A stretch of 59,541 nt of DNA, taken from the sequence record PV778520.1. The stretch is one strand, 5' to 3'. The notes below the pieces were generated by a model. The model did no database searches. It was not told where the DNA came from and saw only the letters and a list, made by a program, of their open reading frames with translations. Shown here piece by piece: positions 51,224 through 51,613 of the stretch (positions are counted from its first letter, which is position 1; every line of letters starts with the position of its first letter). The DNA comes from Escherichia phage RCIP0359. The position numbers and the translations under genes were made by a program.

Positions 51224-51296
51224 GGTATAGCTCCTTTCATTAAAGTTAGTTTGCTTATTATTGCCTACCGTGATAGTAGGCAAGGTATAAGAAAAC

Positions 51297-51545
51297 TTAT
51301 TGCACGATTGCTACGAAATCGGCGGTTGCGATATCCATGCTTGCGAAAGCAACGATGCCATAGTCGGTGTCGTTTTCGGCGTTAAACGCTTTGAGGAACT
51401 GCTGTACCGCTGCTTTATGGTTAAGCGTTACGTCGAGTGCATAGTCCCAGCTATAGAATTTGCGCTTGCCAAAACCTTTAACTGCAATGCGTGCGCCTTT
51501 GGTGTTAGTTGGTGCCAAAAATTTGGTGACGATAGAAGTAGCCAT
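51297..51545 (-). CDS. hypothetical protein
   Basis: 82 aa; RBS GAGGA. Confidence 0.45.
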   Translation of the reverse strand: MATSIVTKFLAPTNTKGARIAVKGFGKRKFYSWDYALDVTLNHKAAVQQFLKAFNAENDTDYGIVAFASMDIATADFVAIVQ

Positions 51546-51613
51546 GATGTAATCCTCGTTTTGTTTAAGTTGACTTATTATTGCCCAGTCGGATCAACTA
51601 GGCAAGATATAAA

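Follow-up and report, generated by a model that had tools for sequence, protein, structure and literature searches.

Two elements between early genes

The early region of this phage raises the question of what is repeated in front of its successive minus-strand genes, a DNA signal or an RNA structure, and what it does there. The window, i.e., the whole 59.5-kb stretch of DNA that was analysed, is a Seuratvirus genome (Queuovirinae) with 94–97% identity to CAjan and PLYYY01. A sequence-only reading had noticed two near-identical elements upstream of consecutive genes and had suggested a search of the genome and its relatives, which bears this out: the gapped pattern CTTATTATTGCC-N9-15-TAGGCAAG has exactly two matches in the window, at 51254–51284 and 51574–51606 (plus-strand coordinates), and none in 100 dinucleotide-preserving shuffles, and the motif is conserved in related phages. 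Both copies lie between the consecutive minus-strand genes A, B, and C and have an inverted repeat as their core, as had been claimed, although the dyad exceeds the limits first given to it, with a paired region of 51248–51297 in copy 1 and 51565–51621 in copy 2. A covariance model built from relatives matched 51239–51303 (copy 1, 71 bits) and 51559–51625 (copy 2, 65.5 bits); with its filters switched off, it revealed no third copy in the window at E ≤ 10.

A half-site that had been proposed at 51881–51900 has three mismatches to GGCAATAATAAG and was dropped, being at chance level (65 such matches found, 67 expected) and situated in the conserved divergent promoter region without a hairpin partner. 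Half matches with one mismatch at 35518 and 35875 were likewise rejected as a split copy and are attributed to chance, since both lie within a helicase gene, 340 bp apart. A conserved island of 58 bp (52371–52427), considered as a second hairpin within a promoter, turned out to be the start of a coding region and folds no better than shuffled sequences.

All three genes adjoining the elements are of no known function. Gene A (51614–51826, minus strand, 70 aa, no family match) is a variable cassette upstream of copy 2; gene B (51297–51545, minus strand, 82 aa, phrog_3199) is flanked by both copies and has its Shine–Dalgarno sequence, GAGGA, at 51557–51553; gene C (50609–51223, minus strand, 204 aa, phrog_22313) lies downstream of copy 1, with AAGGAG at 51236–51231. 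For the proteins A, B, and C and three other neighbours, no Pfam family was found, and the PHROGs matched are of unknown function only. The predicted structure of protein C shows two confident small domains, with only weak fold matches (LexA N-terminal domain, E about 0.6, not significant), winged-helix-like for its C-terminal domain, and no functional link could be drawn from it.

A conserved hairpin in the early mRNA

Our preferred reading of the motif is an RNA hairpin, conserved and some 50 bases long, in the early mRNA of a Seurat-like coliphage. Followed 5' to 3' on the minus strand, it consists of an AU-rich lower stem, an internal loop, a GC-rich upper stem with its apical loop, and UAAUAA; the stop codon of the upstream gene sits within the 5' strand of the lower stem, and the next ribosome-binding site follows about 20 nt after the element. 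The internal loop is small (3 nt by 2 nt) and placed between invariant bases (UA..UG...CA.UAAUAA), and the upper stem comprises 9–11 bp and is closed by a loop with no conserved sequence.

In the A–B intercistronic mRNA, the complete extended hairpin of copy 2 covers 51565–51621 (minus strand) and folds with a minimum free energy (MFE) of −24.1 kcal/mol (z = −7.1) in the sense orientation, compared with −14.2 kcal/mol (z = −2.6) for the antisense strand. Its upper stem-loop, UUGCCUAGU(UG)-loop-(CG)ACUGGGCAA at 51581–51605, has 9–11 bp including U·G wobbles, and the columns of this stem covary over 44 distinct relatives. The 5' flank AGUGAUUUAUAUC (51606–51621), which provides the 5' strand of the lower stem and the internal loop, contains the stop codon of gene A (TAA, 51616–51614), and of the conserved 3' flank UAAUAAG (51574–51580), whose TAATA is invariant in the alignment, the first two bases form the 3' side of the internal loop and the remainder begins the 3' strand of the lower stem. 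Copy 1, in the B–C intercistronic mRNA, covers 51248–51297 (minus strand; −18.8 kcal/mol, z = −6.1 in the sense and −3.7 in the antisense orientation), carries the stop codon of gene B (51299–51297) at its 5' edge, and shows an upper stem-loop of 9 bp with one U·G, UUGCCUACU-AUCAC-GGUAGGCAA, at 51261–51283, followed by the same conserved 3' flank UAAUAAG at 51254–51260.

The loci of relatives were collected with gene C homologues as the anchor and yielded two sets of instances, 16 collected by hand from at least four genera and 73 matches of the covariance model (44 distinct), which come from Seuratvirus, Nonagvirus, Pantoea phage Vid5, Providencia phage PSTCR4, and metagenomes. A pattern scan of IMG/VR mostly returned the known relatives again, together with four low-GC contigs carrying a similar hairpin, and Rfam holds no matching family. 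When the 44 distinct instances were folded by MFE, the median was 21 bp, i.e., about two helical turns (19–24 bp in 39 of them), made up of median helices of 10 bp in the upper and 12 bp in the lower stem, with an internal loop of 3 by 2 (or 2 by 1) in nearly all folds. Placement is strictly intercistronic: 71 of the 73 matches have an upstream stop codon at model positions 1–11 and a same-strand downstream ORF starting 4–31 nt past the element, an arrangement seen on the antisense strand in only 6 of 73. Each genome of a relative carries one to three copies, which are confined to the part of the early operons nearest the promoter; up to three sit in one operon, and the three copies of PSTCR4 have three different stems. 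In CAjan, SA126VB, and yong3, both operons have the hairpin shortly after the divergent early promoters. The element also co-occurs with the conserved gene C across genera, a correlation biased by the use of that gene as anchor in the search.

Pairing rather than sequence is what is kept in the stems. Among the 16 hand-collected instances, double compensatory changes are seen in seven of nine upper-stem pairs, with 99.3% of the cells paired; over the 73 model matches, paired cells amount to 97.5% in the upper and 81% in the lower stem, with a covariation score of 0.43; shuffles gave 0.15, and sliding the partners never gave more than 0.14. Support is weak for the outer half of the lower stem, which has 27 G·U versus 36 A·C and many mismatches. 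Where the 3' flank reads TAATAT or TAGTAA, as it rarely does, the 5' flank has changed to compensate, U22 and G23 are constant while the neighbouring pairs covary, and the distance between the conserved flanks ranges from 20 to 25 nt. The upper stem holds 331 Watson–Crick pairs, 52 G·U, and 3 A·C, a strand bias that places the selection on the sense-strand RNA and not on duplex DNA.

Gene cassettes and homology breakpoints

BLAST homology among Seuratviruses repeatedly stops at 51616–51624, 51566, and 51229–51236 (nine relatives), so that the breaks coincide with the edges of the elements, which therefore bound small-gene cassettes that can be swapped. At 51616–51624, small genes unrelated to gene A take its place in SA126VB, Dru_SM1, GottfriedDienst, SeppeHuegi, and Seurat, and in Seurat and SHIN8, which have no gene B, an element of the copy 2 type stands directly before gene C. 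Because the element is repeated at gene junctions, it may serve as a patch of homology through which small early genes are swapped, gained, or lost.

Possible functions of the element

A processing or stabilising site between cistrons, of the type cut by RNase III in phage T7, is the function that we favour, by analogy and with confidence a little short of even. The early polycistronic mRNA would be read from the minus strand and each copy would fold into its hairpin of about 50 nt and 21 bp; a single cut would then be made by RNase III of the host, or by another of its structure-dependent nucleases, in or beside the internal loop, at about UAA|UAAG if T7 is a guide. This would leave the upstream message protected by a hairpin at its 3' end, and the downstream message would begin with a defined leader, free of structure, about 20 nt before its Shine–Dalgarno sequence. 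We infer the cleavage, the enzyme, and any effect on stability or expression from this analogy. Substrates of RNase III span about two helical turns (~20–22 bp) with ~11 bp from the cut to the loop; an internal loop restricts the cut to one strand, and a hairpin that protects the 3' end is left (PMC1540722). The median helix of 21 bp is of this length, it is split by an internal loop into an upper and a lower stem, and the hairpin lies on the sense strand between cistrons of an early transcript. With an upper stem of 9–11 bp, a putative cut on the 3' side of the internal loop would fall 10–13 nt from the apical loop; upper stems of 9–10 bp are at the lower limit of the 11-bp rule. There are only two sites here, both adjoining small cassette genes, so that a signal linked to the cassettes, a promoter or an insulator, fits this distribution as well as processing does, and the invariant UUG and AAUAAU at 17-nt spacing in elements of the copy 2 type would also suit a sigma-70 promoter.

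That last arrangement leads to an alternative which we consider possible but doubtful, namely a composite early promoter for the host sigma-70 polymerase (AT-rich tract, −35 TTGCCN, −10 AATAAT or TAATAA) with an attenuating or terminating stem-loop in its spacer, giving each small gene its own start and stop signals that are shuffled by recombination between elements. Such promoter-early stem-loops (PeSLs) were described in the T4-type phages RB49, phi1, PST, and nt-1 (Arbiol, Comeau and Krisch; PMC2839356, PMC4122927). Their stem-loop mostly lies between −35 and −10 or overlaps the −10, with an AT-rich tract upstream and a Shine–Dalgarno sequence and start codon at the 3' end; they flank ORFans at indel breakpoints, and element-mediated shuffling by recombination has been described for RB49 and phi1 (PMC2839356). 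Promoter-coupled terminators, in which stem-loop DNA supplies the −35, are reported to be common in bacteria (Fletcher et al., bioRxiv 10.64898/2026.08.19.745784) and offer a second precedent. The layout at our locus matches that of the PeSLs, including the AT-rich tract, the stem-loop position, and the downstream Shine–Dalgarno sequence and start codon, the flanking genes A, B, and C are ORFans, and the breakpoints fall at the element edges. In addition, copy 2 and its orthologues in Seurat, STP-SP5, yong3, Vid5, PSTCR4, and metagenomes read TTGCNN-17-AATAAT, Nonagvirus copies read TTGCCC-17-TAATAT or CAATAT, and the invariance of U22 and G23 beside covarying pairs would find an explanation.

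Most copies do not read as promoters, however. In the promoter scan, copy 2 has TTGCCT (51605–51600), a 17-nt spacer, and AATAAT (51582–51577) on the minus strand (51577–51605), i.e., 9 of 12 consensus positions, a score found at near-chance density in the region (16 matches, 11.3 expected) and at chance density in the genome (42 found, 40.1 expected). Copy 1 reaches at best 7/12, at 16 nt, its spacing to AATAAT being 15 or 16 nt unless TAATAA, which has no critical final T, is taken as the −10. Most types of the family have no −35: both the commonest Seuratvirus form of copy 1 (CTGCTC...GGGCAGTAATAA) and the form in the rightward operon (ATGGGC...) lack it and reach at most 6–8 of 12 while keeping a perfect hairpin, and a promoter does not explain why the 5' flank compensates for changes in the putative −10. 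The evident early promoters of the phage belong to a different and well-conserved family, AATAGCAC-N5-GCC followed by tAGACA-N17-TACTAT. There is no U-tract to end transcription, and two copies in a 59.5-kb siphovirus genome compare with dozens in a T4-type genome. A host sigma-70 promoter survives, as a prediction from the hexamers, only for copy 2 and its orthologues (TTGCCN-17-AATAAT, 9/12), the orthologous copies with a 25-nt hairpin being the only ones in which the sigma-70-like arrangement is kept.

It seems unlikely that the hairpin is passive and not specifically cut, acting as a barrier to 3'–5' exonucleases, like REP elements, or as a weak attenuator through which the first small early genes would be expressed at another level than the remainder of the operon. 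Such a role would suit a stable sense-strand hairpin that is conserved and comes right after a stop codon, and the annotators of SA126VB called the same two hairpins rho-independent terminators (WebGeSTer, TransTermHP). Yet the 3' flank UAAUAAG contains no U-tract, U is abundant in the 5' flank and A in the 3' flank, which is opposite to a terminator whichever strand is read, and a simple barrier needs neither invariant internal-loop bases nor a conserved lower stem. An intrinsic terminator proper was rejected, as the terminator scan calls neither copy but does call canonical U-tract terminators elsewhere in the genome.

Improbable to a similar degree is a more far-reaching proposal, in which the element would be no nuclease site. 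Queuovirinae-like siphoviruses would have in it a dedicated RNA module, active in cis and moving together with small early gene cassettes, which a phage factor (possibly protein C) reads or which acts directly on RNA polymerase to set the switch from immediate-early to delayed-early expression. If this were true, it would be a new kind of regulatory 'cassette joint' in which the control of expression and targeted recombination come together. More generally, the hairpin could bind a phage or host factor other than a nuclease, as a nut- or put-like antitermination signal or as a site for a regulator of the downstream gene, which we judge to be quite improbable. The position just downstream of both divergent early promoters in CAjan, SA126VB, and yong3, the clustering of invariant bases around the internal loop, and the co-occurrence with gene C, together with the winged-helix-like matches of its C-terminal domain, speak for a site of this kind; the apical loops, however, are not conserved, unlike boxB, one operon may hold up to three copies, Rfam gives no match, the co-occurrence carries the anchor bias, and the fold matches of protein C are not significant. 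A lambdoid nut (boxB) or HK022 put site in the strict sense was rejected on account of the non-conserved loop, the single extended hairpin, and the missing Rfam match.

The mechanisms first proposed, an operator for a dimeric regulator or a promoter class for a phage-specific polymerase, are very improbable: the DNA is indeed a long imperfect palindrome upstream of genes with roughly symmetric outer blocks (TTATAnnTTGC and GCAATAATAA), but the inner arms covary instead of remaining conserved half-sites, stems differ between phages and even among the three PSTCR4 copies with their pairing kept, the spacing of the conserved blocks varies by 5 nt, and the strand asymmetry of the mismatches excludes duplex DNA recognition as their source. 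For a promoter class, moreover, the phage encodes neither a T7-like (~880 aa) nor an N4-like (~3500 aa) RNA polymerase, and its early promoters look different. No ORF has the size required, the largest ORF (1051 aa) is a tail fibre, and six of the eight ORFs of at least 450 aa (all except 1–1560 and 1572–3068), comprising tape measure, tail proteins, helicase, primase, and one protein of 679 aa with no Pfam match, showed no RNA polymerase domain. What the sequence-only reading had right is a non-random, conserved element placed before early genes; an operator it probably is not, and both mechanisms fit poorly.

Significance

On the best reading, the element is a useful and fairly ordinary regulatory element, an instance of an already known kind of site. 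It nevertheless defines a covariance-supported RNA family with no Rfam entry, distributed over Seuratvirus, Nonagvirus, Vidquintavirus, Craquatrovirus, and uncultured relatives, and it corrects the annotation of hairpins that are labelled rho-independent terminators in one GenBank record and unannotated in all the others. If the T7 analogy is true, processing of early mRNA by host RNase III reaches well beyond T7-like phages, and a simple study system with two sites would be available in these phages, of which the BASEL collection includes several. The literature searched offered nothing useful on promoters or transcriptomes of Seuratvirus or Queuovirinae. The coincidence of breakpoints and elements shows a route by which small early genes are exchanged, extending the PeSL idea from T4-type myoviruses to siphoviruses, and for phage engineering, the element marks natural junctions at which early genes may be inserted or removed.

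Comparison with known systems

Intrinsic terminators, the label given to these hairpins in OL960573 (phage SA126VB), share with the element a GC-rich hairpin directly after the stop codon, but they have a 3' U-tract, in place of which we find an extension that pairs a U-rich 5' with an A-rich 3' flank. The promoter-coupled terminators of Fletcher et al. are also short intergenic segments between tandem genes in which a stem-loop is combined with promoter hexamers and its DNA forms the −35; theirs have a T-tract in the spacer and then the −10, whereas the element has no T-tract and its −10-like hexamer overlaps the 3' arm.

With the PeSLs, the element has in common that intergenic cassettes are repeated in an early, ORFan-rich variable region, that promoter-like hexamers enclose or overlap a stem-loop, preceded by an AT-rich tract and followed by the Shine–Dalgarno sequence and start codon, and that homology breaks at the elements, consistent with cassette exchange mediated by recombination. 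It differs from them in that the sigma-70 consensus is present in one of two copies and in a minority of family types, that there are two copies instead of dozens, and that the host genome is that of a siphovirus and not of a T4-type myovirus; the element here is predicted from sequence.

For the comparison with T7, which carries the reading as an RNase III-type processing hairpin, we used the early intercistronic RNase III sites R0.3, R0.5, R1, R1.1, and R1.3 of T7 (and T3). The features shown for either T7 record contain no RNase III cut coordinates, and we took the cuts to be at 890, 1468, 3138, 5887, and 6450, after the annotation of Dunn and Studier. When folded, R0.3, R0.5, R1, and R1.1 have an AU-rich lower stem that contains or adjoins a stop codon, then an internal loop, an upper stem of 9–10 bp, and a loop of 4–5 nt, and they lie about 20–30 nt before the next Shine–Dalgarno sequence. 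No significant sequence similarity to the T7 sites was found with reciprocal covariance models: our model aligned R0.3 in full length and in register as the second-best match in 6.6 kb of T7, at E = 2, and the model built from T7 ranked copy 2 sixth in the window, at E = 8.5. The internal loop measures 3 by 2 nt here and about 4 by 5 in T7, and the flanking consensus is UAAUAAG here and UAUGAU in T7; T7 uses ten such sites, and our phages have one to three candidate sites per genome. The likeness lies in architecture and position: both are intercistronic sites in the polycistronic early mRNA of a lytic enterobacterial phage, with a stop codon at an AU-rich lower stem, an internal loop, a GC-rich upper stem of 9–11 bp, a small unconserved loop, and some 20–30 nt to the next Shine–Dalgarno sequence, the copies being alike within one genome, and even the upper-stem pairs are similar (G-C, S-S, S-S, Y·G, A-U, U·G), with the wobbles on the same side.

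Genomic Context and Copies of the Hairpin

All 34 phage records matched by the region 50500-52600, at 88-97% identity, belong to Seuratvirus (Queuovirinae), among them PLYYY01, OddieOddie, CSP1, slur01, CAjan, and Seurat, which makes the window a near-complete genome of a Seurat-like coliphage. Two early operons diverge at 51827-52086, and both hairpin elements fall within 600 nt of the start of the leftward (minus-strand) operon, between gene A (51614-51826), gene B (51297-51545), and gene C (50609-51223), which are all encoded on the minus strand, belong to PHROGs of unknown function, and gave no Pfam family (0/3). 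Gene C is conserved in Seuratvirus, Nonagvirus, Vid5, and PSTCR4. Its AlphaFold model displays two confident small domains (residues ~8-65 and ~140-200) with a disordered linker between them, and its sole fold matches were weak, namely LexA N-terminal and other winged-helix domains (E ~0.6). In phage Vid5 (MG948468), gene C matched by tblastn with 32.5% identity over 94% of the query (E=2e-17), and GenBank places gp80 and gp81 on the strand opposite this match, as well as opposite the hairpin element and ribosome-binding sites there; the strand given for this stretch (record 53984-54814; 6624-7454 of our L016) may be incorrect.

The gapped motif CTTATTATTGCC-N9-15-TAGGCAAG was found exactly twice in the window, at 51254-51284 (copy 1, between genes B and C) and 51574-51606 (copy 2, between genes A and B), and never in 100 shuffles, in agreement with the two near-identical elements of the sequence-only reading. 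A covariance model built from the hairpins of relatives likewise picked exactly these two (71 and 65.5 bits) and revealed no further copies in the window at E<=10 with filters off. The observation is real, except for a supposed half-site at 51881-51900, which requires three mismatches, matches of that kind occurring at chance frequency (65 found, 67 expected). The inverted repeat is present as described, but its extent was understated: the outer AU-rich blocks also pair together. Copy 2 reads UAA-GUGAUUUAUAUC-UUGCCUAGUUGAUCCGACUGGGCAA-UAAUAAGUCAACUU on the minus strand, and the median over the hairpin folds is 21 bp, with 10 in the upper helix, 12 in the lower, and a small internal loop between the two.

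Conservation and Strand-Specific Pairing

Intergenic stretches upstream of gene C homologues and neighbouring junctions were sampled from Seuratvirus (CAjan, SA126VB, Seurat, yong3, STP-SP5, and others), Nonagvirus JenP1, Klebsiella phage K4PH164, Pantoea phage Vid5, Providencia phage PSTCR4, and 29 metagenome loci. Of the conservation anticipated earlier, the hairpin itself held in every sampled relative (PSTCR4 has three copies in tandem), but the stem sequence varies, with 5'/3' arms such as UUGCCUAC/GUAGGCAA, CUGCUCAUC/GGUGGGCAG, UUGCCGAC/GUCGGUAA, UUGCAGGCA/UGUCUGCAA, UUGCAUUUCG/CGGAGUGCAA, UUGCGCA/UGCGCAA, and AUGGGCAUU/AGUGCCCAU. For 16 instances, RNAalifold predicted a 9-bp helix with double compensatory changes in 7 pairs; with the 11-bp lower helix included, 86% of cells in this set pair, versus 34-47% with slid partners and 71% in shuffles. 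Over 305 kb of related sequence the covariance model gave 73 hits (44 distinct), pairing at 97.5% in the upper and 81% in the lower helix, with a covariation score of 0.43 (shuffles 0.15). UAAUAA is otherwise invariant, and its rare variants UAAUAU (Nonagvirus) and UAGUAA (one metagenome copy) are both accompanied by matching 5' flank changes, so that this block is part of the helix. No Rfam family matches the element.

The upper helices of these hits comprise 331 Watson-Crick pairs, 52 G·U wobbles, and 3 A·C mismatches. Since each G·U becomes an A·C when the opposite strand is read, pairing is kept on the gene-sense strand only, which points to RNA and rules out both a cruciform and a symmetric protein that recognises duplex DNA. 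Fold z-scores were -6.1 and -7.1 for the sense strand and less exceptional for the antisense strand (-3.7 and -2.6). In 71 of the 73 hits the upstream open frame ends at model positions 1-11, within the 5' strand of the lower stem, and the next ORF begins 4-31 nt past the element on the same strand, an arrangement seen on the antisense strand in only six; the rightward-operon copies of CAjan, SA126VB, yong3, and others also run sense to their own operon. The hairpin is very probably a sense-strand RNA structure under selection.

Some low-G+C (30-35%) IMG/VR contigs, whose kinship to Queuovirinae is not obvious, carry a similar element, UUAUAnnUUGCCUAUA...UGUAGGCAAUAAUAAG, directly 3' of a stop codon (L058 3128-3195, minus; L055 5258-5306, minus; L060 5858-5906, plus; L069 2838-2905, minus), which the covariance model scores at 35-51 bits. 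The family may extend beyond the phages studied, be it in this or in a convergent form.

Promoters, Terminators, and Other Readings

The main early promoters of the phage form another conserved family, distinct from the hairpins, in which a AATAGCAC-N5-GCC box directly precedes a -35-like hexamer ((T/A)AGACA, TTTACA, or TATTCA), followed after 17 nt by TA(C/T)TAT or GATACT, at 45822-45866 (plus), 51812-51856 (minus), and 52502-52546 (plus), with a related site at 52010-52038 (plus). The box, possibly a regulator site or an UP-like element, also precedes early operons of yong3, STP-SP5, Vid5, PSTCR4, K4PH164, and EC151. That the hairpins form a phage-specific promoter class found little support, the large ORFs scanned showing no RNA polymerase domain and no window ORF matching a T7-like or N4-like RNA polymerase in size.

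[quoted passage not shown] Copy 2 has this layout (TTGCCT-17-AATAAT), which also resembles that of recently described promoter-coupled terminators; its orthologues with a 25-nt hairpin keep TTGCNN-17-AATAAT in six lineages, and Nonagvirus copies have TTGCCC-17-TAATAT. No usable -35/-10 pair exists in copy 1, in the form that copy 1 most often takes in Seuratvirus (CTGCTC...CAGTAATAA), or in the form seen in rightward operons (ATGGGC...), although all three retain perfect hairpins. Promoter activity is therefore not family-defining and may be an additional property of some copies.

A canonical terminator was rejected, as the hairpin has UAAUAAG on its 3' side and is bordered by U-rich sequence 5' and A-rich sequence 3'; the label "rho-independent terminator" on hairpins in the SA126VB record is output of prediction software. 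Ordinary U-tract terminators occur elsewhere in the same genome, with canonical hairpins at 41677-41698 (minus) and 57991-58004 (plus) and a symmetric one, AATAAAGGGCC-GAAA-GGCCCTTTATT, just downstream of the primase gene (46123-46148), which could be bidirectional. That the element acts as a passive barrier is improbable, and a factor-binding or antitermination RNA is quite improbable. An operator for a dimeric regulator, the other earlier proposal, is very improbable and largely unsupported, given changing stem sequences and pairing confined to the sense strand.

Hairpins as Joints between Gene Cassettes

When 49000-54000 was compared by BLAST with eleven related loci, homology repeatedly stopped at 51616-51624 and 51566 (5' and 3' edges of copy 2) and at 51229-51236, just ahead of the gene C start. 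Unrelated small genes replace gene A in SA126VB, Dru_SM1, GottfriedDienst, SeppeHuegi, and one IMG/VR contig, and Seurat and SHIN8 lack gene B, a copy-2-type element lying directly upstream of gene C. The elements therefore behave like conserved joints flanked by ORFan cassettes that can be exchanged, in the manner of the PeSLs of T4-type phages.

Two 58-bp islands were also noted. One (52822-52879, plus), kept between otherwise non-homologous rightward-operon cassettes in six relatives, overlaps a perfect 13-bp hairpin (~52846-52884; part of a fold at -27.6 kcal/mol, z=-2.7) over the start codon of ORF 52853-53143, and the site 52822-52884 may be a further junction element or one with a role in translation. 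The second (52371-52427, plus), conserved at cassette junctions, is the start of a 47-codon ORF (MARKYSLTRAQHA...), contains GCGCGCAGCACGCGC between promoter-like hexamers, is partly repeated at 52306-52325, and folds no better than shuffles. HNH or homing endonuclease genes beside gene C, present or absent depending on the Seuratvirus (CAjan L001 2508-2990; KS_A3, KS_S4, Dru_SM1), are a second source of mosaicism in the early region, independent of the hairpins.

Comparison with the RNase III Sites of T7

In RNase III-type processing, the upstream RNA retains a protective 3' hairpin (PMC1540722). Five T7 early intercistronic regions were folded for comparison, and R0.3, R0.5, R1, and R1.1 share the layout of our hairpins, with the upstream stop codon in or adjoining an AU-rich lower stem, then an internal loop, a GC-rich upper stem of 9-10 bp, and a loop of 4-5 nt; U·G wobbles lie on the same side as in our hairpins, and both stand ~20-30 nt ahead of the next SD. 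Upper stems are near-superimposable between T7 R0.3 (AAGGGUAUC/GGUGCCCUU) and the family member AUGGGCAUU/AGUGCCCAU, and between T7 R1 (GGUCAUC/GGUGGCC) and GCUCAUC/GGUGGGC. Four of the five T7 cuts, as we take them to be from the annotation of Dunn and Studier, fall 3 nt past the upper stem (between UAU and GAU, or AAU and AGG), and the equivalent point in our element would be between UAA and UAAG. Minor E. coli promoters of T7 are annotated in or beside the hairpins R1 (promoter C, TSS 3113, L071 2714; hairpin 2704-2752) and R0.5 (promoter B, TSS 1514, L071 1115; hairpin 1030-1079), a precedent for weak host promoters adjoining processing hairpins.

By analogy, the hairpin would be an intercistronic processing or stabilising site in early mRNA, a specific mechanism that we propose tentatively, as the likeliest of the readings weighed. 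The relatives' model aligned the whole of T7 R0.3 in register, though with E=2, and a model built from the T7 sites ranked copy 2 only sixth in the window (E=8.5); homology is not demonstrable, and the likeness is architectural. The hairpin is a new family within a known kind of element.
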